Positions 6,024-54,134 are shown, numbered from the stretch's first letter. The stretch is DNA of 64,000 nt from Patescibacteria group bacterium (GCA_041662665.1 JBAZSC010000003.1:4603-68602); one strand, 5' to 3'. Made by a program: numbers and translations. The notes: generated by a model from the letters alone, not told the origin.

Positions 6024-6077
6024 TATTGCAGGATTAAGTTAAATTGGATAAAAAGGAAATTTTGTTTATATTTATGT

Positions 6078-6497: not shown

Positions 6498-6680
6498 AGA
6501 TTTAAGATTTGTAGTTATTAACAAAAAGGTCTTGCTTTATATCAAAAATATTGTTATAATGCTTCTTGCAAAATAGATTTTGGTAAAAACTATTTCTTAT
6601 TTTTGCAAAATTTTTTTAGATTATTATAACGAAGAATTTATATTTGACATTATAATTTTTTGCGTATATAATTAAAATAA

Positions 6681-6715
6681 TCCTCCTTCGTCTTTCTAAG
6701 ACTTCGGAGGATAAG
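6681..6715. repeat. GC-rich hairpin repeat, copy b (tcctccttcg...acttcggaggataag)
   Basis: Same TTCG / CTTCGG-flanked inverted repeat architecture, about 30 nt upstream of tuf. Confidence 0.6.
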
Positions 6716-6741
6716 TAATTAAATAAATTAAAATTAAAAAA

Positions 6742-7935
6742 ATGGCAGAAAAATTTGACAGATCAAAACCACATTTAAACGTTGGAACAATTGGCCATGT
6801 TGATCATGGTAAAACTACTTTAACAGCAGCTATCTTGAAAGTTATCAATGCTACTGGTAAAGGCAAAGCTCAAGAGCGAACAGTTGACCAAATTGACTCA
6901 GCTCCAGAAGAGCGTGAGAGAGGTATTACTATCGCTACAGCTCACTGTGAATACGAAACAGAAAAAAGACACTATGCACACGTTGATTGCCCAGGACATG
7001 CTGATTATATTAAGAATATGATTACTGGCGCAGCTCAAATGGATGGTGCTATTTTGGTTGTTTCTGCTGCTGACGGACCAATGCCTCAAACAAGAGAACA
7101 TATTTTGTTAGCTCGCCAAGTTGGTGTACCAGCTATTGTTGTTTTCTTAAATAAGGTTGATCAAGTTGATGATCCAGAAATGGTTGCTTTAGTTGAAGAA
7201 GAAGTAAGAGAATTATTAAAAAAATATCAATTCCCTGGTGATGAGATTCCAATTGTAAAAGGTTCAGCTTTGAAAGCTTTGGAAGATCCAAATGGTGAAG
7301 CTGGAAAACCAATTTTGGAATTATTGGAAAAATTAGATTCATATATTCCTGAACCAAAAAGAGATGTTGACAAACCTTTATTGATGCCTATTGAAGATGT
7401 ATTTTCAATCGAAGGTCGTGGTACTGTTGTTACAGGCAGAATTGAAAGAGGTATGGTTAAAATTAATGATACAGTTGAAATTGTTGGTTTGAAACCTACT
7501 CAAAAAACTGTTGCAACAGGTATTGAAATGTTTAACAAATCTTTGGATGAAGGTAGAGCTGGTGATAATGCTGGTATTTTACTTCGTGGAACAAAGAAAG
7601 AAGATGTTGAAAGAGGACAAGTATTAGCAAAACCAGGTTCAATTACTCCTCATACTGAATTTGAAGCAGAAAGCTATATTTTGAAAAAAGAAGAAGGTGG
7701 AAGACATACTGCGTTCACAAATGGCTACAAACCACAATTTTATGTTAGAACTACTGATGTTACTGGTGAAGTAACATTGCCTGCTGGAACTGAAATGGTA
7801 ATGCCTGGCGATACTGTCAATGGAATGAAAGTTAAATTAGTTGCTCCAGTTGCTATGGAAGAAAAAATGAAATTCGCTATTCGTGAAGGTGGAAGAACTG
7901 TAGGTGCTGGTGTTGTAACAAAGATTATTAAATAA
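6742..7935 (+). CDS. tuf: Elongation factor Tu
   Basis: [25 protein letters not shown] motifs; 397 aa. Confidence 0.97.
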
Positions 7936-7948
7936 TTTATTTTAATGT

Positions 7949-7978
7949 AGGGTACAAAAATTTTTGTACCCTACTAAT
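7949..7978 (+). terminator. Rho-independent terminator after tuf
   Basis: Perfect hairpin gtagggtacaaaaatttttgtaccctac. Confidence 0.65.
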
Positions 7979-7992
7979 TATAATTAAGCCCT

Positions 7993-8340
7993 TTGATGAC
8001 AAAGACTAAGAATCAAGAAAAGAAAGAAGAGACATCTTCTCCAAGAATAAGAATCAAAATTAAGGCGTTTGATCATAAGATTATTGATCAATCAGCAGAG
8101 CAAATAATTGAAACTGCAAAAAGATCTGGTGCAGAGGTTATTGGCCCGATCCCACTTCCTACTGAAAAGCATAGGGATACTGTTTTGAAATCCACTTTTG
8201 TTCACAAAGATGCTCGTGAGCAATTTGAGATTAGGATCCACAAGAGATTGATTGATATTGTGAAGCCAACACCGAAGACGATTGAAGCTTTGTCGAACCT
8301 TAATTTACCAGCAGGAGTTGATGTAGAGATAAAGATGTAA
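7993..8340 (+). CDS. rpsJ: 30S ribosomal protein S10, with a short N-terminal extension
   Basis: [17 protein letters not shown]...[12 protein letters not shown]...[12 protein letters not shown] matches S10. Confidence 0.93.
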
Positions 8341-8651
8341 CCTTACTCGAATACTTTTTCGAATGATATGCTAATGTTTTTTCGAATGTTAGTGAATGTG
8401 TTTTTGAATAAGATTGAATAAATTTCCGAACCGAATGTTTGTGAACAGTCTTGTGAAGTTTTAAACATTTTTTGTTAACTATTTTTTAGATATAAAGTAG
8501 TATTTAGCAAATAAATAGGCGAGCGAATCGCTTTGGGTTTGTTAACCTAATTTTGTTGTAGTACACTAATGCTACACTAATAACGCTAATTAGACACTAA
8601 TTACTAATGGACACTAATTGTTGTTAATAATGGTTATTTAGATATTATTAT

Positions 8652-9263
8652 ATGAAATTCATTTTTGGCGAAAAAATTGGAATGAGTAGAATGTATAATG
8701 AAGGTAAGCTAGAAGCTGTTACCTTAGTTAAAATTGGTGATTGTTTTGTTACAAGGCTTTTAGATAGCAAAAAAGATGGTTATTCTGCAGTTCAGGTTGG
8801 TTACGATATAGTTAAAAAAGGCGATGGAAGAGTAAAAGGAGCTTTAAATAAGGCTGGAATTAAAGAGAATTTAAGTAATTTTGCCGAATTCAGAGGTGAT
8901 GGCTTGACTTCATTAAAAATAGGTGATAAAATTGATATTTCACAGTTCAAAAAAGGTGATTTATTGTCAATTTCCGGACTTTCAAAAGGTAAGGGTTTTG
9001 CAGGTGTTATGAAACGCCATGGTTTTCATGGTGCTCCACATTCTCATGGTCATAAACATGATATGAGAGCTCCTGGTTCTATTAACTCCGGTCATCCTCA
9101 ACATGTTATGAAAGGTAGAAGAATGGGTGGAAGAATGGGTGGAGAAAATGTAACTTTAAAGAATTCTTCAATTTTGGATATTAATTTAGATGAAAATGTA
9201 TTTGCTGTAAAAGGAGCTTTACCTGGTAAGATTGGCTCATGGTTAAAAATTTGTGGAAATTAA
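8652..9263 (+). CDS. rplC: 50S ribosomal protein L3
   Basis: L3-like (GEKIGMSRMY..., FKKGDLLSISGLSKGKGFAGVMKRHGF). Confidence 0.92.
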   Translation: MKFIFGEKIGMSRMYNEGKLEAVTLVKIGDCFVTRLLDSKKDGYSAVQVGYDIVKKGDGRVKGALNKAGIKENLSNFAEFRGDGLTSLKIGDKIDISQFKKGDLLSISGLSKGKGFAGVMKRHGFHGAPHSHGHKHDMRAPGSINSGHPQHVMKGRRMGGRMGGENVTLKNSSILDINLDENVFAVKGALPGKIGSWLKICGN

Positions 9264-9281
9264 AGATTATTTTGTTTATAT

Positions 9282-9893
9282 ATGTTAAAAGTTGATATAT
9301 TGAATAAAGAAGGAAAGACAGTCGGATCAACGGATTTAGATCCAAAGATTTTTGGTGTAGAAATTAAAACTTCAGTTGTTCATCGTGCTGTTATAGCTCA
9401 ATTGAGCAAGAAAGATGTAACTTCTAAATCAAAAGATCGAGCTGAAGTAAGAGGCGGCGGAATTAAGCCATGGAAGCAAAAAGGTACAGGACGTGCTCGT
9501 GTTGGTTCTATTCGTTCTCCATTATGGAAAGGCGGAGGTAAGACTTTTGGTCCTGTTGCAACAAAGAATGATGTTAAAAAGATTAACAAAAAAGAAAAAA
9601 GAAAAGCTTTACATATGGCGCTTTCTGATAAATTTAATTCAAAGAAATTGATTGTCATAGATGAATTGAAAATGGATGCAATTAAGACTAAAGAATTTGC
9701 AAAAATTTTAAAGAATATAAACGCTTACAAAAGTACTCTTGTAATGTTGAAGGAAAAGGATGAAAAGACAATGAAATCAATCAGAAATATTGCAAGTGTA
9801 AAACCTTTACTATCGAATTTATTGAATGTTTATGATGTTGTTAAGTATGATAAATTAGTTTTAGAAAAAGAAGCATTAAAGAATATTAAATAA
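9282..9893 (+). CDS. rplD: 50S ribosomal protein L4
   Basis: L4-like (KPWKQKGTGRARVGSIRSPLWKGGG); conserved S10-operon order. Confidence 0.92.
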   Translation: MLKVDILNKEGKTVGSTDLDPKIFGVEIKTSVVHRAVIAQLSKKDVTSKSKDRAEVRGGGIKPWKQKGTGRARVGSIRSPLWKGGGKTFGPVATKNDVKKINKKEKRKALHMALSDKFNSKKLIVIDELKMDAIKTKEFAKILKNINAYKSTLVMLKEKDEKTMKSIRNIASVKPLLSNLLNVYDVVKYDKLVLEKEALKNIK

Positions 9894-40736: not shown

Positions 40737-40744
40737 TTTCTACC

Positions 40745-40845
40745 CAGCTTTAGCTGGGGTATGTGCAACTTTAGTTGCAGTAGAAGTTTGATGAAAAAAT
40801 AAAGTTTTTCGAACCACAACTAAAGTTGGGTAGATGCTTAATAAA
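40745..40845. repeat. Tandem hairpin element (acccagctttagctggggt, gcaactttagttgc, caactaaagttggg)
   Basis: Hairpins built around a CTTTAG core. Related pair at 32838-32900 (acccaacttttagttggggt, caaactttagtttg). Confidence 0.5.
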
Positions 40846-40850
40846 TTTTT

Positions 40851-41549
40851 ATGCACGAACAAATTGGCGAAATAAGTCAAAAAGATATTATGGAATCAGG
40901 TGTTGAAAAAACTCCAGGTTTAGAAATTGCAAAAACCGAAGAATCAGAAGAAGCTGTAAAATTGTTAGACGAAATTGCAGGAGATATTGAGAATGATCTA
41001 AATATAAAAGCTGAAAGAATGATAATGCTTAGAGAAGCTTTGGGAAAATTGCGATTTAATTTTGGAGCGGAAGGCGAGACAATGACAGCTGAAGAATTAA
41101 AAAAAGTTCCTGATATGAAAGAAAATGTTGAGATTTATGAAGCTATGAAACGAGATTTTCATCTTGGTCGGGCAACACGAATTGATGAAGTTACTTATCT
41201 TACTCCAGGAATGGCAGAAGAAATAATCTTTGTTTATGATCCTGATGAAACTATGTCATTAATGAGTTTAAAAGTAATGACTGATAAACTAGCTGAAGTT
41301 TTGGGTAATGCAGAAGAAGTTAACATAAGGTTACCAAAATTAAATATTTTAACTGGAAAACAGTTGCGAAGTCTTTTGGCAAAAACTAATACTGTTAGTT
41401 TGCGGGGTTTGGATACCGTGCAGGTTGATGGAGATTTAGCGATAACTATAGACCAATGTGCTGGAAGAATTGTTATGGATGACAAGCAAATTGATAGGTT
41501 AAAAGAACTTTTTCCGAAGTTCGAATTTCGTAGAATTATGGGGCATTAA
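40851..41549 (+). CDS. Unknown-family protein, paralog 1 of a tandem pair
   Basis: 232 aa. Shared N-terminal motif (EISQKDIMESGxEKTPGLExAKT) and C-terminus (ELFPxxxFRxxMGH) with the gene at 41612. Confidence 0.6.
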   Translation: MHEQIGEISQKDIMESGVEKTPGLEIAKTEESEEAVKLLDEIAGDIENDLNIKAERMIMLREALGKLRFNFGAEGETMTAEELKKVPDMKENVEIYEAMKRDFHLGRATRIDEVTYLTPGMAEEIIFVYDPDETMSLMSLKVMTDKLAEVLGNAEEVNIRLPKLNILTGKQLRSLLAKTNTVSLRGLDTVQVDGDLAITIDQCAGRIVMDDKQIDRLKELFPKFEFRRIMGH

Positions 41550-41611
41550 TTAATAGACTGAAATTATATAACCTTTAGGTTAAAGCCAAGTAGAAATATT
41601 AAACATTTTTT

Positions 41612-42310
41612 ATGAAAGAACAATTTGGTGAAATAAGTCAAAAAGATATTATGGAATCAGGTGCTGAAAAGACACCTGGTTTAGAATTGGCAAAAACAAA
41701 AGAATTGGATGAAGTTGCAAGTCGAGCTGATGAAATTGCTGATGATTTAAAAAATGATCGAAATATAAAAGCTGAACAATTGATTGGATTAGAAGTGGCT
41801 TTGGGAAAATTGAAGGTTAATTTTGGCGCTGAAGGTGAGACTATGACAGTTGAAGAATTAAAAAAAGTTCCTGATGCAAAAGAAAATGCTAGACTTTATA
41901 GGATAATTGAAAATGCAGTTAAAGAAGGAAAGGCAATTGGGATGGAAGAAGTTACTTATCTTACTCCTGGTATAGCTAGAAAGTTAGTATCTGTTTTAGC
42001 GCCATATCAGATTGCGGATTTGTTAAATCTTAAAGTAATGACTGATGGAGTAGCTGAAGTTTTAGGTAAAGCAGAAAAAGTAAGTATAAGTTCAGCAGCA
42101 TTGGAAAAAATAACATGGAGACAATTGAATGCTTTGTTTGCAAAAACTAATACTGTTCATATGTGGGGTTTAGAAGTGGATAAAAATGATAGGAAATTAG
42201 CTAGAATTATTAATTTACATTCAGAACGAATGGTTATGAATGGTAGTCAAATTGATAAATTACATGAATTATTTCCAGATTTAAATTTTCGCGGACTTAT
42301 GGGCCATTAA
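41612..42310 (+). CDS. Unknown-family protein, paralog 2 of a tandem pair
   Basis: 232 aa, about 50% identical to 40851..41549 along the full length. Confidence 0.6.
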   Translation: MKEQFGEISQKDIMESGAEKTPGLELAKTKELDEVASRADEIADDLKNDRNIKAEQLIGLEVALGKLKVNFGAEGETMTVEELKKVPDAKENARLYRIIENAVKEGKAIGMEEVTYLTPGIARKLVSVLAPYQIADLLNLKVMTDGVAEVLGKAEKVSISSAALEKITWRQLNALFAKTNTVHMWGLEVDKNDRKLARIINLHSERMVMNGSQIDKLHELFPDLNFRGLMGH

Positions 42311-42323
42311 TTAAAGTTTTATT

Positions 42324-43400
42324 ATGCAAAAATATATACTAGTTATAAATTCAGGTTCAACTTCTTTAAAATACAAATTATTTTTAGAGACTGATTTAAA
42401 GATGATTAGATCTGGATATATTGAACACATTGGTGAAAGTGAAATTAAAGATCATGAGCAAGCTTTTGGAATAGTTTTGGAAGAAATCAAAGATTATAAA
42501 AATGATATTGTAAAAATTGGACATCGAGTTGTGCATGGAGGAACTAAGTTTGTAGAGCCAACAAAGATTGATGAAAACGTTTTGAAAGAATTAGAAGAAG
42601 TAAGTAAATTAGCGCCATTACATAATCCAGCAAATTTAATGGGAATTAAGGCATCTATGAAATTATTGCCAAATGTTTTAAATGTTGCTGTTTTCGATAC
42701 TGCTTTTCATCAAAGTATTCCAGAAAAAGCGTGGAGATATGCGATTGATGATAAATATTTTAAACAATATGGAGTGAGGCGATATGGATTTCATGGGATA
42801 TCACATGAATATGTTTGTGGACAAGTTAAAAGTCAAAAGTCTAAAGTCAAAAGTAACAATTCAAAATTAAAAATAATCTCCTGCCATCTTGGTGGTGGAT
42901 GTTCGGTTTGTGCTATTTCTGATGGCAAATCTGTTGATACTTCGATGGGATTTACGCCACTTGAGGGATTGGTGATGATGAGCAGATGTGGTGATATTGA
43001 TCCAGCAATAGTGACATATTTGCAGAAAAAAGAAAATTTAAGCGTTGATCAAATTGAAGAAATTTTGAATTTTAAATCTGGAATTTTTGCATTATGTGGT
43101 GAGACAAATTGGTTGAAAGTTTTGGAACGTGTTAAAGTTAATGATAGATTAGCAAAAATGGCTTTTGATATTTTTGTTTATAGAATAAAAAAATATATTG
43201 GTAGTTATTACGCAATTTTAGGCGGACTTGATGTTTTGGTTTTTACTGGATCAATTGGATCTGGAGATGCTTTAACTCGAGAGGCTGTTTGTGACGGTTT
43301 GCCATTTTTGGAAAATGTTGAAGTGACGGCGATTAAGACGGATGAGGAAATGATGATCTCTAGGAAAATTCTAAGCACTAAATTCGTTAAAAGCTTCTAA
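42324..43400 (+). CDS. ackA: Acetate kinase
   Basis: ILVINSGSTSLKYKLF N-terminus, HLGGG, and ASKHD-family fold. Small Lys/Ser-rich insertion (SQKSKVKSNNSKLK). Confidence 0.88.
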   Translation: MQKYILVINSGSTSLKYKLFLETDLKMIRSGYIEHIGESEIKDHEQAFGIVLEEIKDYKNDIVKIGHRVVHGGTKFVEPTKIDENVLKELEEVSKLAPLHNPANLMGIKASMKLLPNVLNVAVFDTAFHQSIPEKAWRYAIDDKYFKQYGVRRYGFHGISHEYVCGQVKSQKSKVKSNNSKLKIISCHLGGGCSVCAISDGKSVDTSMGFTPLEGLVMMSRCGDIDPAIVTYLQKKENLSVDQIEEILNFKSGIFALCGETNWLKVLERVKVNDRLAKMAFDIFVYRIKKYIGSYYAILGGLDVLVFTGSIGSGDALTREAVCDGLPFLENVEVTAIKTDEEMMISRKILSTKFVKSF

Positions 43401-43450
43401 GGTCGCTTTTAACTTCTAAGCAAATTCAAAGAACAAAAATATAAATATAC

Positions 43451-43550
43451 GAAGAGGCTCAGCCTTTTATTTAAATTGTTGGTTTGTGTTTTTAATAAAG
43501 TTGATTTTAAATGTAATTGCTTAGTTTTTTTAATAAAAGGCTGAGCCTCT
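43451..43550. repeat. Long-range inverted repeat directly upstream of recJ
   Basis: aagaggctcagccttttatttaaa ... ttaataaaaggctgagcctctt (about 19-bp stem, about 55-nt loop). Confidence 0.5.
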
Positions 43551-43557
43551 TAAGATT

Positions 43558-45293
43558 ATGCAAAGACTTTGGCAGGTAAAACAAAAAATAAGTGAAGATT
43601 TTATTAATAAATTTCCAGAATTTGATTCTGTGATTTTGCAATTGTTATTTAATAGAGGAATTGATAATCAGAAAAAGATTGATGAATTTTTTAATCCAGA
43701 TTATTCAAAAAATTTATTTGATCCATTTTTATTGAAAGATATGGATCGAGCGGTTGAAAGAATTTTTAAGGCATTAAAGAATAAAGAAAGAGTTGGAATT
43801 TTTGGTGACTATGATGCTGATGGCGTAACATCATCTGTTTTATTAACAGAATTATTTAAAAAAATTGGTTTGGCTGGGCAAGTTTATATTCCTGATCGAG
43901 TCTCTGAAGGCTATGGAATGAATAAGAAAGCAATTGATTGGCTAGCAAAAAAAGATATTAAATTGATTGTCAGTTGTGATTGTGGTGTTTCAAACAAGGA
44001 AGAAATTGATTATGCAAAAGAAAAATATGGAATTGATTGCGTAATTACTGATCACCATCATGTTCCTATAGATTTTGATAAAAAATATATTGTTGTTGAC
44101 TCAAAAAGAAAGGGTGATAAATATCCATATAAAGAGTTGGCGGGTGTTGGCGTTGTTTTTAAGCTGGCTCAGGCATTGATCACTCGAATTAATTTTCGAA
44201 TAAAAGCGAATGAATTTTCGAATGTTAAACTTGAAAATGGTTGGGAAAAGAGTTTGCTTGATTTAGTGACGATTGGCACGATTGCGGATTGTTCGCCGAT
44301 TATTTCGGAGAATAGAACATTGGTGAAATATGGATTAAATATTATAAAAGAGACTGAAAGAATTGGTTTGCAAAGTTTGATGCAAGTAGCTTGCGTTGAT
44401 CCAAAATTAATTAATAGCGACAGAATCGGTTTTGCAATTGCGCCAAGAATTAATTCAGCTGGCAGAATGGATCATGCTTCGGCATCGTATAAACTTTTGA
44501 TTACAGAAGATTTGGAAAAAGCAGTTTGGTTGTCTAAAAAAATCGATAAGACAAATTCAAGCCGGCAATCTTTGACAAGTAAATTAGTTGATGAGGCAAA
44601 AAAGAAAATTGGCGATGTCAAAGATCAAAAAGTATTAATGGCATCTGGTGGAAATGGCCTTTGGGCGTTGTAGGTATTGTGGCTGGCAGGATTTGTGAAG
44701 AATATAATCGGCCAACTTTGATTTGTGGTAAGGGCTTGATTGAATCTGTTGGATCAGCTAGAAGTATTCCTGCTTTTGATATTATTGACGCTATTTCTTC
44801 TTGTAAAAATTTGTTATTAGAATATGGCGGACATAAACAAGCAGCTGGCTTTTCTTTGAAAAATGAAAATTTTGAAAAATTTCATAAAAAATTAGAAAAA
44901 ATTGCAACAGAAAAAATAGATGAAAAAGATTTACAGCCAGTAATTGAAATTGACAGCGAAGTTGATTTTAAAGATGTGAATTGGAATTTGTATGAAAGAT
45001 TATTAGATTTTGAACCTCATGGAATTGGAAATCGAAAGCCGGTTTTTTTGGCAAAAGATATTCAAGTTATTAATGCTTATCCTGTTGGCAAAACAAAAAA
45101 GCATTTAAAAATGAAAATTAAGTCTAATTCCGATAGTCGGATTTTTGATGTGATTGGTTTTAATCATGGACATAGAGTAGAGGAGTTAAATAAAAAAGGT
45201 AAAATGGATATTGTTTTTAATTTGGATTGTAATGAATGGAATGGAGAAAAGATTTTGCAGTTGAGACTTGTTGATTTTAGGATTTCACTCTAA
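43558..45293 (+). pseudogene. recJ: Single-stranded-DNA exonuclease RecJ, split into two ORFs (43558..44673 and 44661..45293) by a frameshift near 44650-44662
   Basis: N-terminal ORF carries DHH motifs (GDYDADGVTS, ITDHHH). C-terminal ORF carries DHHA1 (GGHKQAAGF). The canonical ...WxPGVVGIVAGRI junction appears as WKWPLGVVGIVAGRI in the shifted frame. Could be a real pseudogene, a sequencing error or a slippage site. Confidence 0.7.
44181..44230. repeat. TCGAAT-rich repeat inserted in-frame within recJ
   Basis: cactcgaattaattttcgaataaaagcgaatgaattttcgaatg encodes ITRINFRIKANEFSN. Its 22-nt core aattttcgaataaaagcgaat recurs at 45296 just after the recJ stop. Confidence 0.65.
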
Positions 45294-45295
45294 TA

Positions 45296-45360
45296 AATTT
45301 TCGAATAAAAGCGAATTCATTAAAAAATTTCTATTCAAAATTTTTTAATTCGAATGATGT
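45296..45360. repeat. TCGAAT-rich repeat, intergenic copy
   Basis: aattttcgaataaaagcgaattcattaaaaaatttc...aattcgaatg. Confidence 0.6.
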
Positions 45361-45371
45361 TCCGATAACTT

Positions 45372-45441
45372 TTTGTGGATAATATTTTATTCTAGATATG
45401 GTATACTTAGATTATCTAAAATTGGTATAATTAAAACAAAT
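45372..45441 (+). promoter_or_regulatory. Conserved upstream region shared with the surface-protein gene at 22718
   Basis: ttttgtggataatattttattctagatatggtatacttagattatctaaa, about 90% identical to 22650-22700. Confidence 0.55.
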
Positions 45442-47856
45442 ATGTATTTTTTTAATACAAAAATAAACAAAAAAGTACGAGGGGGGGGGCTTAATGGAAA
45501 GGTAAAATTTTTTAGTATTTCAAAATACAAGATTCTTTTGAGTCTTTTTTTTGTTTTGGGGGTTTGTTTTTGTTTTGGTAAAATAACGTTTGCTTATCCA
45601 CCCTATACACCAAATTCTGATTTAGTTGTTGTGGGTCCTTATGATACTGCACCAACAAGTGGAGTAAAAAATATAGGTGATGGAGTAGGCGATGGAGTTG
45701 CTAAACGTTATTGGTTAAACGGCGGTCAAAAATACAGAATTCGGCAGAATGGAACCATTAGTAAAGCTAAGGTCTGGGTACCAAACTCTAATGGAACATT
45801 TACTTTTTTTCAAATTCAAATATGGAGACCAAATGGAACAAATTTTGATTTAGTAGGAGAATCGGAAAATTTTTATTCTTCAATTACAAAAAATCAAGTT
45901 AATGAGATCACTTTATCTTCTCCTATCTCCAATGTTCAAGAAGGAGATTATTATGGAATTGTAATTTCGATGAATGGTGATACTGGGTCAATGTATGCAA
46001 GAAGTGGTTTGACCGGAGTCAATCTATACTATACTTCGACGACGCCTAGTGATACTAATTATAATTGGTTGGCAAATTCTAAACTATCAGGATATGCTAT
46101 TCCACTAGAATTATATATGCAAGCGCCACAGGGTGTTTTTATCGGTGATTCTATTGTGGCTGGTCATCCTGCTAATTATAGTTTCTTAGAAACTACAGCA
46201 ACAACAGATATTAGTTCTACTATTGAGAAACAATTTAGTAATCTTACAGGATATACTTATCAAAATATGGGTATTGGTTCACAGACAACTTCTAACATAT
46301 CTGCTCGTTTTACCAATGATGCATTAAATTTAAAACCTAGATTTATAGTAGTTGAAGGAGGAGTAAATGATTTAGCTGGAAGTGTAGATAAGTCTGTTTT
46401 TATTGCAAATTGGACGAGCATGTTGGATGCGGTACAAGCAGATGATGATATAACAACAATAATAATTTTGAAAATCTTACCTTGGACAGATGGAACAAAT
46501 ATTCAAATGCAAACTAGAGATGATTGGAACGCATCATTAGTTACTTTGTCATCAGGATATTCAAAGGCTATAGTTGTTGATGCGAGTACTTATGTGGGGC
46601 AGTTTCGTGCAGGTGGTGATGTTGGAAATCTTTGGGATATACAACTCGCTTATGATGAGTCGGGAGTACATTTTAATCAAGCAGGAAATTCTCAAATAGC
46701 ACAAGCAATTGCCGATGCATTAGATAGTGATGCTCCAGTTACAACTGCTCTTCCATTAGGGGGAATATATAACAGTTTTAAAACAGTAACTTTATCTTGT
46801 GATGATGGTAGCGGACAAGGATGTAATAAAACATATTACACAATTGACGGGACAGATCCAACTACAAGCTCACCTGAATATACTGTTCCTCTAGATATTT
46901 CTTCTAATACTACTTTAAAATTCTTTTCAGTTGATGTTGTTGATAACCAAGAATCAGTAAAAACAGAAGTTTATGTTATTGACACAGAATCACCAGTAAC
47001 AACTGCTACTCCAGCTGGTGGAACATACGATAGCGTTCAAGTAGTTACTTTGACAACAGATGAAGCAGCAACAACATATTACACATTAGATGGCACAGAT
47101 CCAACAATTTTATCGTTAGTCTATTCTTTGCCAATCACAATTTCTGAAACATCAGTTCTTAAATTTTTTTCAGTTGATAATGTTGGAAATTCCGAAAGTG
47201 TAAAAACTGAAGAATATATTATTAATACTGAAGCTCCATTTATTCCTTTCATTGAAAAACTTAATTTAGAAAACGTAATTCTAAATCAAACCTATCAAAG
47301 TCAACAAAACAATGCAGATCTTCTTTTCTATCTTCTTCCTAAACAAAAAGTAATCAAAGATCTATATATTAAATTAATCAGAAACAAGAAGAAACACCTT
47401 AATGGTTTTACAAAAAAGAATAGTTATCCAGGTTATTTAAAACTATTATCAAATATTGGTACAGTAAAAAAAGCTTATCAAAAAAATGTTAATAAGCATA
47501 TTAATTTTAGAGTCTCTGTTAGATATTCTAAAACAAAATTAAACAAGACTAACATCAAAGAAAAGAATCTAAGATTATTTATTAAAGATCGAGATGGTAT
47601 TTGGCGAGGACCATACAGAATTTATCAAAACAAAACAACTCATACTCTAAAATTTAAGATTAGAAATTATTTAGTTAGACAACCGAAAAATCCTGTTCCA
47701 AATCCACTTGATGTCAAAACAAAAAATAGACCATTTGCGCCATCATTTTACTTTAGAACTTTGAAAAAGATTAAATTCGTAATTGCAGAGAAAAATACAT
47801 TATCTAAATTAACAAATTCTGAAACATCGGATAGCCAAGATTTTGATTTTGAATAA
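45442..47856 (+). CDS. Large secreted surface protein: leader, SGNH/GDSL hydrolase domain, two CHB_HEX_C-like (chitobiase/beta-hexosaminidase C-terminal-like) repeats, conserved basic C-terminal domain
   Basis: Leader FFSISKYKILLSLFFVLGVC matches the 22718 gene. GDSL block VFIGDSIVAG, block III GGVNDL and block V DESGVHFNQAG. Tandem ~80-aa repeats (YYTIDGTDPTTSS... / YYTLDGTDPT...). C-terminal 200 aa about 95% identical to the 22718 protein. G9 tract at 45481-45489. Confidence 0.8.
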   Translation: MYFFNTKINKKVRGGGLNGKVKFFSISKYKILLSLFFVLGVCFCFGKITFAYPPYTPNSDLVVVGPYDTAPTSGVKNIGDGVGDGVAKRYWLNGGQKYRIRQNGTISKAKVWVPNSNGTFTFFQIQIWRPNGTNFDLVGESENFYSSITKNQVNEITLSSPISNVQEGDYYGIVISMNGDTGSMYARSGLTGVNLYYTSTTPSDTNYNWLANSKLSGYAIPLELYMQAPQGVFIGDSIVAGHPANYSFLETTATTDISSTIEKQFSNLTGYTYQNMGIGSQTTSNISARFTNDALNLKPRFIVVEGGVNDLAGSVDKSVFIANWTSMLDAVQADDDITTIIILKILPWTDGTNIQMQTRDDWNASLVTLSSGYSKAIVVDASTYVGQFRAGGDVGNLWDIQLAYDESGVHFNQAGNSQIAQAIADALDSDAPVTTALPLGGIYNSFKTVTLSCDDGSGQGCNKTYYTIDGTDPTTSSPEYTVPLDISSNTTLKFFSVDVVDNQESVKTEVYVIDTESPVTTATPAGGTYDSVQVVTLTTDEAATTYYTLDGTDPTILSLVYSLPITISETSVLKFFSVDNVGNSESVKTEEYIINTEAPFIPFIEKLNLENVILNQTYQSQQNNADLLFYLLPKQKVIKDLYIKLIRNKKKHLNGFTKKNSYPGYLKLLSNIGTVKKAYQKNVNKHINFRVSVRYSKTKLNKTNIKEKNLRLFIKDRDGIWRGPYRIYQNKTTHTLKFKIRNYLVRQPKNPVPNPLDVKTKNRPFAPSFYFRTLKKIKFVIAEKNTLSKLTNSETSDSQDFDFE
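45481..45489 (+). repeat. Homopolymeric G9 tract inside the 5' coding region (codes RGGG)
   Basis: gggggggggc in a roughly 30% GC genome; absent from the paralog at 22718. Confidence 0.9.
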
Positions 47857-47865
47857 GAAATTAAG

Positions 47866-47900
47866 AATACTAAAACAGGCTAAAAAAATAGTCTGTTTTT
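47866..47900 (+). terminator. Rho-independent terminator candidate
   Basis: aaacaggctaaaaaaatagtctgttttttt. Confidence 0.45.
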
Positions 47901-47975
47901 TTATTGTTAAAATTGTTAAATTGTTTTATTGTTGATATATAGGAATATTTTTTGTGAATTATTTATTAAAATAAA

Positions 47976-48326
47976 ATGTTAACTAAAACAGATCTAAAAT
48001 CAATAGCTGGCTTGATAAATAAAAGCGCTAATGGTTTGGAAAAAAGACTAGATAAAAAGATTAATAATTTAGACAAAAAATTTGATAAAAAGTTTGATTC
48101 TTTTGCAATTATGGTTCAAAAAGGTTTTGAACATGTTGATAAAAGATTTGAAAACATCGAGCAAGATATTTCAGTAATGAAAACAAGTATTTCAAAAATA
48201 GAGACAGATGTTTCTGAAATGAAAATAAGACTTTCAAAAATAGAGACAGATATTTCTGAAATGAAAGAAGATATCGAATATTTGAAGCAAAAATTGATTG
48301 TAGTTGAAGAAAAATTGATTATTTAG
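47976..48326 (+). CDS. Hypothetical coiled-coil protein with an internal 30-nt tandem repeat
   Basis: SKIETDVSEMK / SKIETDISEMK repeat; direct DNA repeat at 48189-48265. Confidence 0.45.
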   Translation: MLTKTDLKSIAGLINKSANGLEKRLDKKINNLDKKFDKKFDSFAIMVQKGFEHVDKRFENIEQDISVMKTSISKIETDVSEMKIRLSKIETDISEMKEDIEYLKQKLIVVEEKLII

Positions 48327-48469
48327 AACAAAAAATTGGTGGATTATCAAAAGTTGAACAAGAAGATGTTGATGTTTTGGCTGTTGATTTAGAAAAATTA
48401 AAAGTTAAAGTACAAGATTTAAAAGTGCAGGTTCAAAATCAAAAAACATTAAGTTAATTATATTTTTTT

Positions 48470-48913
48470 ATGGCAACAACAGATTATATTGATAGTAAGA
48501 AAACTAAAGAATTAGATATTTATACTGATGGCGGATCCAGAGGAAATCCTGGCAATGCAGCAATTGGAGTGGTGATTTATAATTCTGATGGTTTGGCAGT
48601 TGAAAAAGTTTCTGAATATATTGGTGAAGCAACAAATAATCAAGCGGAATATAATGCGTTGATTGTTGGTTTGCAAGAAGCGCAGAATTATAAAGCAAAA
48701 TCTGTTCATTGTTATTTGGATAGTGAATTAGTTGTAAAACAGATGAAAGGACAGTACAAAGTTAAGAATGAAAATATGAAACCTTTATTTACAGTTGTCC
48801 AAGGATTAATTAAAAATTTTGAAAGTGTGAAATTTACGCATATTCCTCGCGAGAAAAATAAAGAAGCGGATCGTCTTGTTAATTTGGCATTGGATAAAGC
48901 AAAAAAAAGTTAG
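48470..48913 (+). CDS. rnhA: Ribonuclease HI
   Basis: LDIYTDGGSRGNPGNAAIGVVIY, NNQAEYNALIVGL, and DSELVVKQM with a C-terminal D: type 1 RNase H catalytic residues (D, E, D, D). Confidence 0.85.
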   Translation: MATTDYIDSKKTKELDIYTDGGSRGNPGNAAIGVVIYNSDGLAVEKVSEYIGEATNNQAEYNALIVGLQEAQNYKAKSVHCYLDSELVVKQMKGQYKVKNENMKPLFTVVQGLIKNFESVKFTHIPREKNKEADRLVNLALDKAKKS

Positions 48914-49016
48914 ACTAGTTAGATTTGTTAGACTGGTTAACAATCTGAAATCTGACATTGCTAAATTGTTTCATTGTTAAATTGTTTTTTGGCTTATTTG
49001 AGCTTATATAAATACA

Positions 49017-49045
49017 TTGACAAAAATGTATTTTTTTGTTATGTT
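49017..49045 (+). promoter_or_regulatory. Sigma70-like promoter for the RNase P RNA
   Basis: TTGACA (49017-49022), 17-nt spacer, TATGTT (49040-49045); about 6 nt upstream of the predicted P1 5' end. Confidence 0.5.
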
Positions 49046-49050
49046 GATAT

Positions 49051-49618
49051 GACTCAAGTAAGTTGAGTGATTGCTCTGTACATGGTTTGCAAAAATTATG
49101 TGCGGAGAGGAAAGTCCGGGCATCATTTGGAGGTTGGATGTGAGAAATGGGAAATGGGAAAAGAAAAATTCTCATTTTCTCATATCCCATATCCAACTTC
49201 CAATTTCGTGGTAGTTCCGAAATGGAACCAAGTATAAGAAATTGCTAACTGCTAATAGTTTATAGCTAATAGTTGATAGTTGTTTCGAAGCTAGGACCAG
49301 TGCCACAGAGACGTAAACTACCGGGGAACTAGTAACTAGGAAACTAGTAATTAGGGAACTGGAAAAGGTGAAAAGAGTGGTGTAAAAGACCACAGATTGT
49401 CATGGTGACATGGCAATGGGGTAAACTCTACCTGATGCAACCCAATATAAACTGGGGCATGAATTGTCAAGCAATTGACAATCCAGAGAGATAATCACTG
49501 AATCTCTAATTTGCACTAATTTAGCACAAATAGCACGAATAACTATTTGTGAAATTCGTGATAAATTTGTGCCTATTAGAGATTCTACAGAACCTGGCTT
49601 ATAGACTTACTTGAGTCA
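49051..49618 (+). ncRNA. rnpB: RNase P RNA (bacterial type A), unusually long at about 568 nt owing to AT-rich helix expansions
   Basis: P4 strands GAGGAAAGTCCGGGC (49087-49101) and ACAGAACCTGGCTTA (49588-49602). Conserved AAGGTGAAAAGAGTGGTGTAAAAGACCAC. 13-bp P1 pairing gactcaagtaagt / acttacttgagtc. Confidence 0.85.
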
Positions 49619-49625
49619 TTTTAAT

Positions 49626-49658
49626 CTGCCTACGTCTTGAGGGACTTCGGTAGACAAG
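49626..49658. repeat. GC-rich hairpin repeat, copy f, just 3' of rnpB
   Basis: tctgcctacgtcttgagggacttcggtagacaag. Confidence 0.55.
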
Positions 49659-49783
49659 AAGTTATAAACAACCCAACATGTTTTGTTGAGTTTTTTTTAT
49701 TTTTGGGTTAGAATAATGTTAGTAAACAGGAAACAGAAAACAGTATTTTCTATTTTCTATTTTTCATTAACTATTTTCTATAA

Positions 49784-51169
49784 ATGAAACGATCTGAATT
49801 ATTTTTTACTGCGGCATTAGTACCACTTGACTTTTTAATGTTATTATTGGCTGCTGTTTCAGCTTATTTTTTGAGATTCACTTCTTACTTTGTAGATCTT
49901 CGAGAAGTAAAATTTGATATGCCGTTTGCAAAATTTATAGTATTTGTTTCTATTATTGCTTTGGCTTGGTTAATAATTTTTGCCTTTTTGGGATTATATG
50001 ATGTAAAAAAGAAAAGAAGATTTGTTGATGATTTATATTTAGTTTTTGTTGCAGTTTCAACTGGCATGGCAGCAATATTTGCATATTTGTTTTTTTCACA
50101 AGAATTATTTGGGTCGCGTTTCATTGTTTTATTTGTATGGTTGTTCAGTATTGTCTATGTTGTTATTGCAAGACAATTTGTAAAAATTTTTCAAAAATGG
50201 CTTTATAGATTCAACATTGGCGTTCATCGAGTAGTTTTAGTTGGTCTTAATTCAATCAGTCAAAGCATAGTTAAATATTTAACCGAAAAAAAATATTCTG
50301 GCTATAAAGTGGTGGCAAGAATAAAAAGTTTTGATGAAACAGTTGAAGGAACATTGGAAAGAATTTCTCAACGAAAAGGCATTGATGAAATTATTCAGAT
50401 AGATCCAAAATTACCAAAAGGCCAAGTATTATCTTTGATTGATTTTGCTGATGAAAGAAAAATTGATTTTAAATATGCTCCAGATCTTTTTGGAACTCAA
50501 GCAACGAATATTGATGTTGAAACTTTTTATGGCGTACCGATTGTATATTTAAGGAGAACTCCTTTGGATGGATGGGGTAGAATTATAAAAAGAATAATTG
50601 ATTTTATTTTAGCATTAATTTTATTGATTATTTTATCGCCAATATTTTTTTTAGTCGCATTAATTATAAAAATTGATTCACGAGGTCCAGTGTTTGTGAG
50701 ATTGAAGCGTGTTAAAAAAGATGGAGAATTCTATATTTTTAAATTCAGGTCAATGGTTAAAAATGCGCATAAAATGAAAAAGGAATTATTAAAATATAGT
50801 GATAGAAAGGGTCCATTATTTAAGATGAAGGATGATCCTCGAGTTACCAGGGTTGGCAGAATTTTGAGAAAAACAAGAATTGATGAATTACCGCAATTGA
50901 TGAATGTTGTTTGCAATGAAATGAGCTTAATCGGTCCAAGACCGCATGAGCCACAAGAGGTTGAAAAATATACAAAACATCAAAGAAGAGTTTTGGAAAT
51001 AAAACCTGGAATGACTGGAATGGCTCAAGTTTCTGGAGCTTCAGATCTTAGTTTTAATGAAGAAGTTAGATTAGATACTTATTATATTGAAGATTGGTCA
51101 TTGTTATTAGATTTACAGATTTTTTTAAAAACAATTATTATTGTTATAACAATGCATGGAGCAGCGTAG
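49784..51169 (+). CDS. Polyprenyl-phosphate sugar phosphotransferase (bacterial sugar transferase family, WbaP/EpsB-like), initiating enzyme
   Basis: N-terminal TM bundle, then C-terminal catalytic domain with RPxxPxLxQL-type block ...DELPQLMNV... and LIGPRPH. Confidence 0.85.
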   Translation: MKRSELFFTAALVPLDFLMLLLAAVSAYFLRFTSYFVDLREVKFDMPFAKFIVFVSIIALAWLIIFAFLGLYDVKKKRRFVDDLYLVFVAVSTGMAAIFAYLFFSQELFGSRFIVLFVWLFSIVYVVIARQFVKIFQKWLYRFNIGVHRVVLVGLNSISQSIVKYLTEKKYSGYKVVARIKSFDETVEGTLERISQRKGIDEIIQIDPKLPKGQVLSLIDFADERKIDFKYAPDLFGTQATNIDVETFYGVPIVYLRRTPLDGWGRIIKRIIDFILALILLIILSPIFFLVALIIKIDSRGPVFVRLKRVKKDGEFYIFKFRSMVKNAHKMKKELLKYSDRKGPLFKMKDDPRVTRVGRILRKTRIDELPQLMNVVCNEMSLIGPRPHEPQEVEKYTKHQRRVLEIKPGMTGMAQVSGASDLSFNEEVRLDTYYIEDWSLLLDLQIFLKTIIIVITMHGAA

Positions 51170-51312
51170 TGCGAAATCCTGAATTCTAAATCCTAAACTC
51201 TAAACAAATCAAAAATCCAAATATTAAAATTCAAAGAGTTGGGTTTTGAAATTTAGGTTTTATGTTTTGAATTTATTTAGAATTTAGAGTTTAGAAATTA
51301 GAATTTTAATTT

Positions 51313-52437
51313 ATGAAGGTCGCTTTAGTACATGATTTTTTAAATCAAGTTGGTGGAGCTGAAAAAGTTTTGGAAATTTTTCATGAAATTTTTCCGAGAG
51401 CTCCTGTCTATACAATTACCTACGATGAAAAAGAAACTCGGGGTGTTTTTAAGCACTTAAATATTAAGACGTCTTTTATTCAACGTTTGCCTTTTGGTGT
51501 CAAACAATACAAATGGTATATTTCAATGATGCCGGCAGCAATTGAGCAATTTGATTTTTCTAAATATGATATTGTTTTATCTGATTGTTCTGCTTTTTCA
51601 AAAGGCGTGATTGTTCGACCAGAGACTTTGCATATTAGCTATGTTCATTCACCAACAAGATATCTTTGGAATGATACGCACAGCTATACTGAAGAAATAA
51701 AACAACCAGGTGTTATCAAAAAAATGTTGCCTTTAGTATTGCAAAAAATTAGGACTTGGGATCAATTGGCAGCTTTGAGAGTTGATAAAATGATTGCAAA
51801 TTCCAAAACTGTTTCAGAAAGAATTGAAAAATATTATAAAAGAAAAAGTGATATTATTTATCCGCCAGTTGAAACAGACAAATATTATATTTCTAATGAC
51901 ATTGATGATTATTTTTTGGTTGTCTCTAGACTTCGTCCATACAAGCGAGTTGATTTAGTTGTTGAAGCTTTTAATGCATTGCGTTTGCCTTTGAAAGTAA
52001 TCGGCACAGGAGAAGAATTAGAAACTTTAAAGAAAATGGCAAATGATAATATTGAATTTTTAGGTCCAGTTTCTGATAAAGAAAAAGCTTATTATCTTTC
52101 AAGATGCAAGGCGTTTATTCATCCGCAAGAAGAAGATTTTGGTATTACAGCTCTGGAAGCAATGGCATCTGGTAGACCAGTAATTGCTTATAAAAAAGGC
52201 GGAGCAGTGGAAACTGTAATTCCTGGTAAGAGCGGTATTCTATTTGAAGATCAATCGCCTTGGAGTTTAGTTGATGCAGTTCGTGATTTTGATTCGAAAA
52301 ATTTTAATCCAGAAGAAATTAGAAAAAGAGCTTTGGATTTTGATATTAAATTATTTAAAGATAGAATTGAAAAATATATTTTTGATTCTTATCGAGAATT
52401 TAAAGATAGCAGAGAAAATTATTATAAAATAAATTAA
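51313..52437 (+). CDS. Glycosyltransferase family 4
   Basis: GT4 E-x7-E region EDFGITALEAMASGRPVIA. Confidence 0.82.
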   Translation: MKVALVHDFLNQVGGAEKVLEIFHEIFPRAPVYTITYDEKETRGVFKHLNIKTSFIQRLPFGVKQYKWYISMMPAAIEQFDFSKYDIVLSDCSAFSKGVIVRPETLHISYVHSPTRYLWNDTHSYTEEIKQPGVIKKMLPLVLQKIRTWDQLAALRVDKMIANSKTVSERIEKYYKRKSDIIYPPVETDKYYISNDIDDYFLVVSRLRPYKRVDLVVEAFNALRLPLKVIGTGEELETLKKMANDNIEFLGPVSDKEKAYYLSRCKAFIHPQEEDFGITALEAMASGRPVIAYKKGGAVETVIPGKSGILFEDQSPWSLVDAVRDFDSKNFNPEEIRKRALDFDIKLFKDRIEKYIFDSYREFKDSRENYYKIN

Positions 52438-52446
52438 AAAATAATT

Positions 52447-53058
52447 ATGAATCCAAAGAATTATATTCAAGTAGTTTTAAGGCACAAATTTACAATAATT
52501 GCGTGTATTGTTTTGTGCGGTTTGGCAGCGTTGATTTATGCTTATGTAAAGCCTCAATCTTTTAGTTCAAATATTTCAATGTCTTTTCATAGAGTGAACA
52601 AAGAGGCAACAGTTGATTATCAATATGATAATTATTATGCTGGCAAGGCTGTAGAAATTGTTTCTAATACTGTTGCTGGATGGTTGCAAACTCCAAATAT
52701 TGTTCAGGAAATTTATACAACAGCAAATGTTACTCCTGATGATATTTATAAAGATGCAAAGAAATTTAAACCAAAACAAGTTTCTGCTCATCAAGTAGAA
52801 ATGAGATTAACTAATAAAAATAGGCAAGATTTGGAAAAATTATCAAAAGCAACTGTGTCTGTTATGAAAAATAAAGTTGCAAATTTGGAAGTAACAAATG
52901 AACAGAAAAATGCTTTTGATGTGATTTCTGAAGATCCAATAATTACAGAAGTAAAATATAGTCCATTAATGTTGACTTTGATTGGACTTGTGGCTGGATT
53001 ATTTGTGGGCATTGGATTAGCATTTTTGTGGGAGTATTTTAGAGATGAAAGTAACTAG
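52447..53058 (+). CDS. Short polysaccharide co-polymerase / chain-length determinant (Wzz-like) protein
   Basis: N-terminal TM, periplasmic-type middle, C-terminal TM with a G-rich helix (LIGLVAGLFVGIGLAFLWEYF). Located within the glycan locus. Confidence 0.5.
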   Translation: MNPKNYIQVVLRHKFTIIACIVLCGLAALIYAYVKPQSFSSNISMSFHRVNKEATVDYQYDNYYAGKAVEIVSNTVAGWLQTPNIVQEIYTTANVTPDDIYKDAKKFKPKQVSAHQVEMRLTNKNRQDLEKLSKATVSVMKNKVANLEVTNEQKNAFDVISEDPIITEVKYSPLMLTLIGLVAGLFVGIGLAFLWEYFRDESN

Positions 53059-53084
53059 TAATAAGTAACTAGTAACTGAATTTT

Positions 53085-54134
53085 ATGGAGAGATCTGTTG
53101 AGACTTCGCAATTTGCAGATATTAAAGAACCTGGAGAAGTAAAAGAAACTCCAGGTTTTGAATTTGAAAAAACAGAATATTCAGAACAGTTTGTTACAGA
53201 AGCAAATGAAATTGCAAAAGCAATAGAAAGAGACAAGCCAGTTTTGCTTGATCAAGTGTTGAAATTAAGAGAAGCATTAGAAAAAATGGTTGAATCAGAT
53301 CCAAAAGTTGAAGCAAAAAGATTGTTTGGCGAAGGATATATGGGACCAGATGAAATAGAAGCTCATTTTACAGTTCAAGATGAGAATGGAAATGTTGAAA
53401 AGTTATTTGAATATACTCCTGAAGAAAAAGAGAAGATCAATCAGATGTTGCGAGAGAAATTAGATGATCCGCAAATCAAAGATTTAATCAGAAGAACACC
53501 AAAAGAAGAATTGCGAGAAAAATTTCAGCTATTTCTTTTTCCTGATAAATTCAAAGATGGCATGCCGGTAACAATGAAAAGTTTGAATGAAAGATTTCAG
53601 CCTGAAATGACAAGACGAGGTTTAGGAAAATTGTTTGTCGGTGATGTTACTGAAAGTTGGTATGCTAAAGTTGAAGAGCCATTTTTTATTTCAGATTCAG
53701 CTAAAAAATTAGAATGGAAACTAGTTAGTCGTGGAAATATTGAAGGTTCATATAATCATGATGCTTTTGATGAAACTAGAATTTTGCGAGAATTTTTAAC
53801 AGTAAATAACTTAGCAACTACTGAAGAATTAGCCGAGGCTTGGAATGGAAAACTAGATGCTTTAAGACAGTTACAACTAACTGACGTGAAGGATGCAGCC
53901 AGACAATTATCAGAACTTAAAATTAACCAAAATTACAGAATGGATCCTTTGCAAGTGATATTCTTGCATGCAATGCAGAAAAGTTTTCTAGGAAATAATT
54001 ATACAAGAACCGCTAAGCTTTCATCAGATGGCCGCTTGGTTGATGTTGGTCGCTGTAGTGCTGGTGGTGCGGGAGTGCGTACTGCGTTTCTTGTTAATTT
54101 CAGTGGTATTTTGGGTGTTTCTTTTTCCATCTAA
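53085..54134 (+). CDS. Unknown-family protein, third member of the family at 40851/41612 (shared N-terminal ~80 aa, different C-terminal region)
   Basis: IKEPGEVKETPGFEFEKTEYSE...LKLREALEKM parallels IMESGVEKTPGLEIAKTEESE...IMLREALGKL. Confidence 0.5.
   Translation: MERSVETSQFADIKEPGEVKETPGFEFEKTEYSEQFVTEANEIAKAIERDKPVLLDQVLKLREALEKMVESDPKVEAKRLFGEGYMGPDEIEAHFTVQDENGNVEKLFEYTPEEKEKINQMLREKLDDPQIKDLIRRTPKEELREKFQLFLFPDKFKDGMPVTMKSLNERFQPEMTRRGLGKLFVGDVTESWYAKVEEPFFISDSAKKLEWKLVSRGNIEGSYNHDAFDETRILREFLTVNNLATTEELAEAWNGKLDALRQLQLTDVKDAARQLSELKINQNYRMDPLQVIFLHAMQKSFLGNNYTRTAKLSSDGRLVDVGRCSAGGAGVRTAFLVNFSGILGVSFSI

Follow-up and report, generated by a model that had tools for sequence, protein, structure and literature searches.

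A shared N-terminal module on LRR-like and lectin-fold proteins of Peribacteria-like bacteria: candidate binders of a MoxR-type ATPase/VWA system

Diversity-generating retroelements (DGRs) are unusually abundant among candidate phyla radiation (CPR) bacteria, and their targets there are reported to be without known cellular context (PMC8144416, PMC5758913); the CPR targets have been described as having no recognisable N-terminal domain (PMC8144416). A second group of relevant systems are the MoxR-vWA 'ternary' conflict systems (Kaur et al. 2020, PMC7159879), built on a MoxR-class AAA+ ATPase and a vWA protein. DGR-diversified CLec proteins, some of them with uncharacterised N-terminal extensions and encoded next to the MoxR gene, have been proposed as sensors of these systems (Dore et al. 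2024, PMC10907252). Here we analyse three genes, p1, p2 and p3, on a stretch of 64,000 nucleotides from a Patescibacteria group bacterium (GCA_041662665.1 JBAZSC010000003.1:4603-68602; in the following, the window, with positions counted from its first letter). Their products carry a common N-terminal module of about 90 residues (N-module), followed either by a predicted leucine-rich repeat (LRR)-like solenoid (short type, p1 and p2) or by a body with a formylglycine-generating enzyme (FGE)-like/C-type-lectin fold (long type, p3). The latter is likewise the fold of the DGR targets Mtd of a Bordetella phage and TvpA of Treponema denticola and of the CPR targets. In contrast to these, the N-module of the long type is also found on a non-DGR, LRR-type family, and a lipoprotein or signal sequence is absent. 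The features are:

40851-41549, + strand: p1, short-type member 1, 232 residues; N-module, predicted degenerate LRR-like solenoid of 4-5 repeats, C-terminal cap helix
41612-42310, + strand: p2, short-type member 2, 232 residues; tandem paralog of p1 with the same architecture
53085-54134, + strand: p3, long-type member, 349 residues; N-module and FGE-like/C-type-lectin-fold body, DGR-target family
40851-41120, + strand: N-module of p1, residues 1-90; disordered acidic head, D-I and PG(L/F)E motifs, helical hairpin, FGxEGxxMTxEEL
53085-53378, + strand: N-module of p3, residues 1-98; insert ESDPKVEAK (9 residues) compared with the short type

The original prediction had recognised these three genes as an unknown family, with p1 and p2 in tandem between pduL and ackA. 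The placement is confirmed by matches of the flanking genes to PduL (PF06130, E 2e-69) and AckA (PF00871, E 1e-111). The proteins p1 and p2 are 56% identical across all 232 residues (BLASTP, E 3e-88), while the match of p3 to p1 is confined to residues 6-68 (63 residues, 48% identity, E 8e-10) and that of p3 to p2 to the N-terminus (37% identity, E 3e-7). Profile-profile comparison (hhalign) aligns residues 11-90 of the short family with residues 11-98 of the long family (probability 97.4%, E 1.2e-11) and detects no similarity beyond the N-module. Both the predicted N-terminal similarity and the different C-terminal region of p3 hold up under formal alignment, although the module extends to about 90 residues rather than the 40-80 first assumed. 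One real N-terminal module is thus common to two body types. The count of three members is correct for the window, in which no fourth member is encoded in any frame, but not for the family: the same metagenome-assembled genome (MAG) holds three more long-type paralogs (WC663_03680, WC663_03575 and WC663_01175), and the repeat-type protein P0059 is encoded next to an AAA_5 ATPase gene with a 100%-identical counterpart on one of its contigs. As predicted, none of the three window proteins has a signal peptide or transmembrane helix; hydrophobic segments are absent (maximal Kyte-Doolittle mean over 19 residues <=1.45).

With a pI of ~4.5 and a net charge of -7 to -10, the N-module is acidic, and it contains the invariant residues D12, I13, G23, E25, D49, A63, F71, G72, E74 and E82 in the family alignment. 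In the AlphaFold2 model of p1, residues 1-24 have a predicted local distance difference test (pLDDT) score below 50 and are followed by helices at residues 30-47 and 54-65; in the model of p3, helices at residues 31-48, 55-71 and 73-84 reach pLDDT 84-88. A hidden Markov model (HMM) of 97 positions built from the module was searched exhaustively against 1.84 billion cluster representatives and matched 56 of them, 25 at E<=1e-10. In all matches but one, a spurious repeat protein, the module is located at the extreme N-terminus. No match to the N-module was found in Pfam, NCBIfam, PHROGs or PADLOC with the three window proteins and with 53 family members; profile searches of the PDB with full-length alignments of both families found nothing. 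To our knowledge, a module common to a DGR-target family and a non-DGR LRR-type family has not been described previously.

A word-indexed search of 5.8 billion proteins for the short type returned only five sequences, two of which are those of the window. In the wider set of repeat-type members, the N-module is followed by a linker ('...IPD..N..IW..I..G'), the repeats, a cap helix and a basic tail. The repeats have 23-24 residues with the consensus 'L.GL.SLSD.AAE.LS.H.G.L.L' and occur in 2-12 tandem copies; those of p1 and p2 are degenerate (4-5 copies). The AlphaFold2 model of the short type, built from an alignment of 5 sequences (mean pLDDT 75.6), consists of a disordered segment (residues 1-24), a two-helix segment, and a region of alternating helices and strands with a period of ~24 residues (residues 115-225, pLDDT 85-96). 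Foldseek searches with this model gave LRR-leaning matches only, none of them significant; the top structural matches of the solenoid include FBXL2, FBXL17, Skp2 and LegL1. The family has the tandem repeats of 20-30 residues with a hydrophobic pattern that are typical of LRR proteins, and a curved alpha/beta solenoid is predicted. Curated models do not recognise it: no Pfam LRR model matches any of the 53 members at E<=0.01, and no Pfam model of any kind covers the repeats in these members. Because of the repeat architecture of the family and the modelled helix/strand solenoid, p1 and p2 are short and degenerate representatives of an LRR-like family that has not been described before. The architecture is analogous to that of F-box/LRR proteins (FBXL; bacterial GALA/LegL effectors), in which a small N-terminal adaptor precedes helix-backed (cysteine-containing/RNase-inhibitor) LRRs or other binders, albeit with a repeat period of 26 residues there and 23-24 residues here. 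An F-box itself was considered and rejected, as no Pfam match was obtained at E<=1 for the window proteins or at E<=0.01 for the 53 members. We know of no ubiquitin system to be expected in this organism or its likely hosts.

The body of p3 has the FGE/C-type-lectin fold that is found in DGR targets. Twelve long-type relatives were identified, including the three paralogs of the same MAG; in a distant one, P0017, the first ~70 residues of the N-module are missing. The structure predictions suggested at the outset thus yield an LRR-like solenoid for the short and a lectin fold for the long type, so that the bodies no longer count as unknown, and a characterised fold applies to them but not to the N-module. 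Among the long-type paralogs, the C-terminal ~30 residues are the least conserved stretch (23-48% identity, compared with 62-69% for the body), bounded by the conserved motifs 'RTAK..SS' and 'GVSFSR'.

The nature of this variable stretch is evident from a related genome. On a contig of JGI metagenome 3300026159 (L046), the long-type gene P0011 is followed on its 3' side by a repeat, a bAvd gene (PF22296, 38.9 bits, just under the gathering score of 40 bits, and listed also in the precomputed annotation) and a reverse transcriptase gene (RT; PF00078, E 8e-21). The intergenic repeat, the template repeat (TR), is a 117-nt copy of the 3' end of P0011 with 84% identity. It is composed of 25% A, is rich in AAT codons, and contains 28 A compared with 15 in the gene copy. 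Of 17 differences between TR and P0011 in 112 nt, 15 are located at TR adenines (binomial P=7e-8). Because this is the defining signature of DGRs, P0011, a homologue of p3, is a DGR target. The same arrangement is found in a second locus (L047). The corresponding region of p3 is:

54021-54128, + strand: putative DGR variable region (VR) of p3, 108 nt, residues ~313-348, adenine-depleted, with the conserved flanks TCATCAGATGG and GGGTGTTTCTTTTTCC

The length and both flanks of this region are the same as in the VR/TR pair of L046, and it contains 11 A compared with 28 in the TR of that locus. Relative to this TR, it is changed at 75% of the TR-A positions but at only 27.5% of the non-A positions. 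At positions 54045-54104, where most codons are NNT, A makes up 10% and GC 52%; the 60-nt bins before this segment have 28-48% A. Probably, therefore, p3 itself is targeted by a DGR, to judge from this pattern of substitution. The syntenic long-type ortholog (L045) and a further copy (L049) have no adjacent DGR cassette. Like the situation in the window, this fits the use of remote targets that is known from chromosomal DGRs (PMC5758913). A scan of metagenome and viral collections for the VR/TR pattern gave 0 matches, the known JGI contig being absent from the collection as well, and a protein-based metagenome scan recovered two short fragments only, one of them without an adjacent DGR. An RVT_1 reverse transcriptase gene with small unannotated neighbours is also found in a Peribacteraceae locus (L050, 580-1647, - strand), ~9 kb upstream of the ATPase/module/VWA cassette described below; a search within 4.2 kb of it found no TR/VR repeat.

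The N-module family is restricted to Peribacteria-like CPR bacteria, where it is multi-copy, arrayed and fast-evolving. Species-representative genomes were scanned with a degenerate DNA pattern, which recovers a subset of the members, and matches were verified with the N-module HMM. True members were found in three CPR MAGs only, often in tandem arrays; 29 further loci in unrelated taxa have no HMM match and were taken as chance. The arrays consist of about six (L005), three (L025), four (L034) and two (L040) members, and at least 11 genes with the module are present in the fetched pieces of the assembly CAZNOH01, with more of them in L045. Relatives of the ATPase described below are named Candidatus Peribacteria or Peribacteraceae, of the phylum Peregrinibacteriota, whereas the MAGs of L005, L015, L025, L034 and L040 are titled 'uncultured Candidatus Saccharibacteria bacterium'. 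We take the GC content of ~31% and the context of PduL/AckA and a NiFe-hydrogenase to be unlike typical Saccharibacteria; the Saccharibacteria labels of these third-party annotation (TPA) assemblies look unreliable. When the window is compared with its syntenic relatives, identity is 78-96% for neighbouring genes but 44-64% for the short type and 58% for the long-type ortholog; inserts of the p1/p2 type diverge 2-4 times faster than neighbouring genes. We also note, from a comparison with P0007-P0009 and P0014, that p3 is closer to its paralogs in the same genome (61-66% identity) than to its syntenic ortholog (58%), while identity to the syntenic relative is 82-96% for the glycosyltransferase and Wzz genes on its flanks. 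This suggests gene conversion among the paralogs or very fast divergence.

Comparison of gene neighbourhoods, also proposed with the original prediction, reveals a recurrent association. In six loci (L004, L034, L005, L040, L042/L043 and L050), repeat-type members adjoin, and often sit between, genes for a MoxR-class AAA_5 ATPase and a VWA protein. In L042/L043, the gene for P0059, a repeat-type member of 388 residues, is located directly 5' of the ATPase gene P0072, followed by the VWA gene. P0059 and P0072 are 100% matches, and P0072 is also found on the 645,164-bp MAG contig that carries WC663_01175; the window organism, or a strain nearly identical to it, thus appears to be the source of this locus. 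In the Peribacteraceae locus L050, the cassette is kept at 52% ATPase identity. The ATPase has ~630 residues (AAA_5, PF07728, E 7e-17) and is 61% identical between two genomes; its nearest solved relatives in the PDB are NorQ and CbbQ. A Walker A motif 'GEAG(T/V)GKN', with Asn at the last position, is conserved in L004, L034, L042, L050 and L051. The N-terminal (~300 residues) and C-terminal (~190 residues) extensions of the ATPase contain many invariant residues, their fold being unassigned. The VWA protein (~640-670 residues) has the metal ion-dependent adhesion site (MIDAS) motif start 'D.SGSM' wherever that part is covered, and an N-terminal 'GEI.HE.GHA' (HExxH) in every copy except the split one of L034. 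The latter (CAZNOH01, - strand) is divided exactly at the HExxH region into open reading frames (ORFs) of 127 residues (2059-2439) and 511 residues (499-2031), neither of which contains HExxH, and is possibly a pseudogene or frameshift; the four-gene array beside it is kept nonetheless. At 42% ATPase identity (L051), the ATPase/VWA pair is kept, but the array beside it is made up of four WD40 propeller proteins instead. These tandem paralogs, one of 260 and three of 388 residues (4840-9365, + strand), follow the pair and are 76-85% identical to one another in their first ~95 residues. This N-terminus has a suggestive similarity to the N-module that does not reach significance (hhalign probability 17%, E 0.0015; E 0.2 in the reversed control).

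We propose that the N-module proteins form a modular binding superfamily, in which the N-module would dock interchangeable LRR and lectin binders onto the AAA_5/VWA machine. We assign a probability of roughly 45% to this composite reading. The N-module is probably a docking handle, with no evident link to acetate metabolism. The proposal follows the published one of DGR lectin domains as antigen sensors of MoxR-vWA systems (PMC10907252; framework in PMC7159879). Each protein would consist of the acidic module of ~90 residues and a variable ligand-binding domain. In the related genome, the DGR acts through an RT that copies the adenine-rich TR with errors at A and overwrites the 3' end of the long-type gene. 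The N-module would then present germline-varied LRR arrays as well as DGR-hypermutated lectin domains, as sensors or binders, to the AAA_5/VWA(-peptidase) machine, and the whole would be a CPR variant of MoxR-vWA sensing/conflict systems. With regard to the contact itself, the nearest solved ATPase relatives belong to CbbQ-CbbO and NorQ-NorD, which likewise work with VWA partners, and the cassette partner has an intact MIDAS motif start. In CbbQ-CbbO and NorQ-NorD, the MIDAS of the VWA partner engages an acidic residue of the client. By this precedent, the MIDAS of the cassette protein would bind an invariant acidic residue of the N-module (D12, E25, D49 or E82), which is plausible yet speculative. 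Cleavage by the HExxH domain as the output of the system is speculative as well. Unlike in the two known pairs, there is no Rubisco or NO-reductase context here, the VWA partner also has a conserved HExxH, and an entire family of binding proteins would serve as clients. Families that combine a putative metallopeptidase with VWA and are encoded beside MoxR ATPases are represented by DUF2201_N/DUF2201.

The agreement with described MoxR-vWA systems is partial. The pairing of a MoxR-class ATPase with a vWA protein is found in six related loci, and the pair is located beside diversifying repeat-type or lectin-fold binders, as in the systems with DGR-diversified sensors. However, the binders are separate small arrayed proteins instead of fusions to vWA or STAND, and the WD40 propellers of L051 are separate genes instead of fusions to vWA. 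Both termini of the ATPase (~630 residues) have long extensions and its Walker A ends in GKN, and the host is a CPR bacterium with a small genome instead of a multicellular one. No VMAP, TIR, caspase or trypsin effector was recognised, and neither was iSTAND, FtsH or a beta-propeller fused to vWA by Pfam in the neighbours of the pair, in a library without profiles for VMAP-C or iSTAND. A homotypic adaptor of the effector-associated domain (EAD) kind was ruled out for the ATPase and the VWA protein, since the N-module is on neither core component. The wider proposal, that Peribacteria-like CPR bacteria have a system of intracellular recognition built on one MoxR-type ATPase/VWA-metallopeptidase hub with detachable receptors (LRR, distantly WD40, and DGR-hypermutated lectin) and one docking domain, is doubtful at present.

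Several observations weigh against docking onto the ATPase/VWA pair. The N-module is not found on the ATPase (hhalign probability 0.4%) or the VWA protein (0.2%), and the homotypic adaptor pattern of MoxR-vWA systems is therefore not reproduced. The long type was never seen inside a cassette; its closest occurrence is ~21 kb away on the same JGI contig, in one genome, and p1, p2 and p3 are all far from any ATPase/VWA cassette. The link between module and pair comes from gene neighbourhood in one clade, and the association may be inflated because these genomes share ancestry. A Ser or Thr at the end of Walker A normally coordinates Mg2+, so that the Asn at this position makes ATPase activity uncertain. 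The VWA domain is matched weakly by Pfam (E 3e-4 to 0.016), and no PADLOC defence model was matched. Finally, the window contains neither a TR (low-stringency blastn) nor an RT, and hence the DGR targeting of p3 is deduced from a homologue in another genome.

One alternative is that these are exported or surface-exposed host-binding proteins of an episymbiont, with the N-module as a non-classical export or anchoring signal or as a stalk, and with the ATPase/VWA pair as chaperone or unrelated. The ligands of lectin-fold DGR targets and of LRR arrays are commonly extracellular, most cellular DGR targets have signal peptides or transmembrane helices (PMC8144416), and the multi-copy, tandem, fast-evolving nature of the family is as would be expected for host-interface proteins. 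Disorder is also predicted for the first ~25 residues despite their conservation, as is often so in secretion signals. We nevertheless consider export unlikely: a signal peptide or transmembrane segment is absent, the neighbours that recur are a soluble AAA+ ATPase together with a VWA protein, and the neighbourhoods inspected contain no recognisable secretion-system gene in their precomputed Pfam annotations. CPR DGR targets in particular have been noted as being without membrane or secretion features (PMC8144416).

A second alternative attributes a purely structural or oligomerising role to the N-module, for example that of a helical stalk spread by recombination, with no common partner; the neighbourhood would then go back, by phylogenetic accident, to a single ancestral locus. 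A helical hairpin or bundle does form the core of the module, the cassette-bearing genomes are all related, and the absence of the module from both partners agrees with this explanation too. It is however difficult to reconcile with the preservation of the neighbourhood down to 52% ATPase identity despite reshuffled arrays (1 to ~7 members in different order), or with the pair at 42% identity being flanked by WD40 proteins that have a conserved N-terminus of ~95 residues of their own. The reshuffled arrays and the WD40 arrays beside the pair argue for a functional link of the pair with N-terminally tagged repeat binders. In addition, the invariant residues are acidic or polar and located in a disordered head, which is atypical for a pure oligomerisation core. 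An accident of descent is therefore rather improbable in our view.

The original prediction considered the insertion of the tandem genes into the acetate branch as notable, and p1 and p2 could accordingly constitute a specialised subfamily acting on this ATP-yielding branch, for example as scaffolds or regulators of PduL and AckA. Six short-type genes are known, from four genomes, and each of them is located between genes for PTAC/PduL and acetate kinase (two copies in L001 and one each in L002 and L003, besides the window), and the short type is a distinct subgroup with its own conserved motifs. The spacers around the gene of L002 are 3 nt and 13 nt. Co-transcription with pduL and ackA is plausible because the position is conserved and the spacers are sometimes very short. 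The common orientation is not informative about an operon, since all ORFs of the window with at least 200 residues are on the + strand. Moreover, the four genomes are closely related, with synteny extending over at least 20 kb, which makes positional conservation weak evidence. The inserts are 44-64% identical as compared with 78-88% for PduL and AckA, the copy number is 1 or 2, other family members occur in unrelated contexts, and the recurrent neighbours of the family are the AAA_5 ATPase and the VWA protein rather than PduL and AckA. A role in acetate metabolism is thus very unlikely, and the position between pduL and ackA would be a conserved yet incidental insertion site. The idea of a compartment tag linked to PduL is not supported: the PTAC match begins at residue 5, hence PduL has no N-terminal extension, and the N-module with its ~90 residues and disordered acidic head is unlike the microcompartment encapsulation peptide of ~18 residues. 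What stands of the suggested interaction tag is a shared partner, to which the gene neighbourhoods also point. The spacer upstream of p1 has features of its own:

40737-40850, + strand: pduL-p1 spacer, two perfect small hairpins with TTTA loops, function unassigned

The hairpins (40743-40784; starts at 40743 and 40764) have 6-bp stems, CCCAGC-TTTA-GCTGGG and TGCAAC-TTTA-GTTGCA, and are the only perfect TTTA-loop hairpins in the window. A third, imperfect hairpin follows (CCACAACT-AAA-GTTGGG). No Rfam family was matched by the hairpins of this spacer, which may act in RNA processing or stability or be a scar of the insertion.

Remnant phage receptor-binding proteins are a highly improbable explanation: a conserved N-terminus for virion attachment, a variable C-terminal binder and a phage-type DGR would correspond to the classical tail-fibre architecture, and DGRs were first found diversifying phage tail-fibre-type proteins (PMC5758913), but there is no PHROG match at E<0.01, no phage structural gene recognisable in the precomputed Pfam annotations of the inspected loci, and no match in the viral-contig scan for the VR/TR pattern (0 matches), and the family genes are dispersed among housekeeping genes.

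The window contains further features. The gene recJ is split into overlapping ORFs (43558-44673 and 44661-45293; together 43558-45293), while syntenic relatives encode a single RecJ of 572-577 residues (DHH, DHHA1, RecJ_OB); the split is a frameshift, due either to a sequencing or assembly error or to a pseudogene. A bacterial RNase P RNA of class A is located at 49055-49617 (+ strand; 137.9 bits, E 7.5e-43) and must hold sizeable insertions, because it spans 563 nt compared with 367 positions of the model. Positions 47976-48326 (+ strand) encode a predicted coiled-coil protein of 116 residues with the internally repeated motifs ISKIETDVSEMK and LSKIETDISEMK.

For the two genes within the acetate-fermentation string, the metabolic reading is tempting but unsupported, and is corrected here. 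One DGR-target family shares a searchable N-terminal domain with an expanded LRR-type family that flanks a MoxR-class ATPase and a VWA/HExxH protein. What the DGR targets of CPR bacteria plug into thereby becomes a testable question. If the wider proposal of one hub with detachable receptors is true, 'innate-like' and 'adaptive-like' receptor diversity would be combined on one signalling machine in a genome of ~1 Mb, and CPR DGR targets would gain their first mechanistic context.

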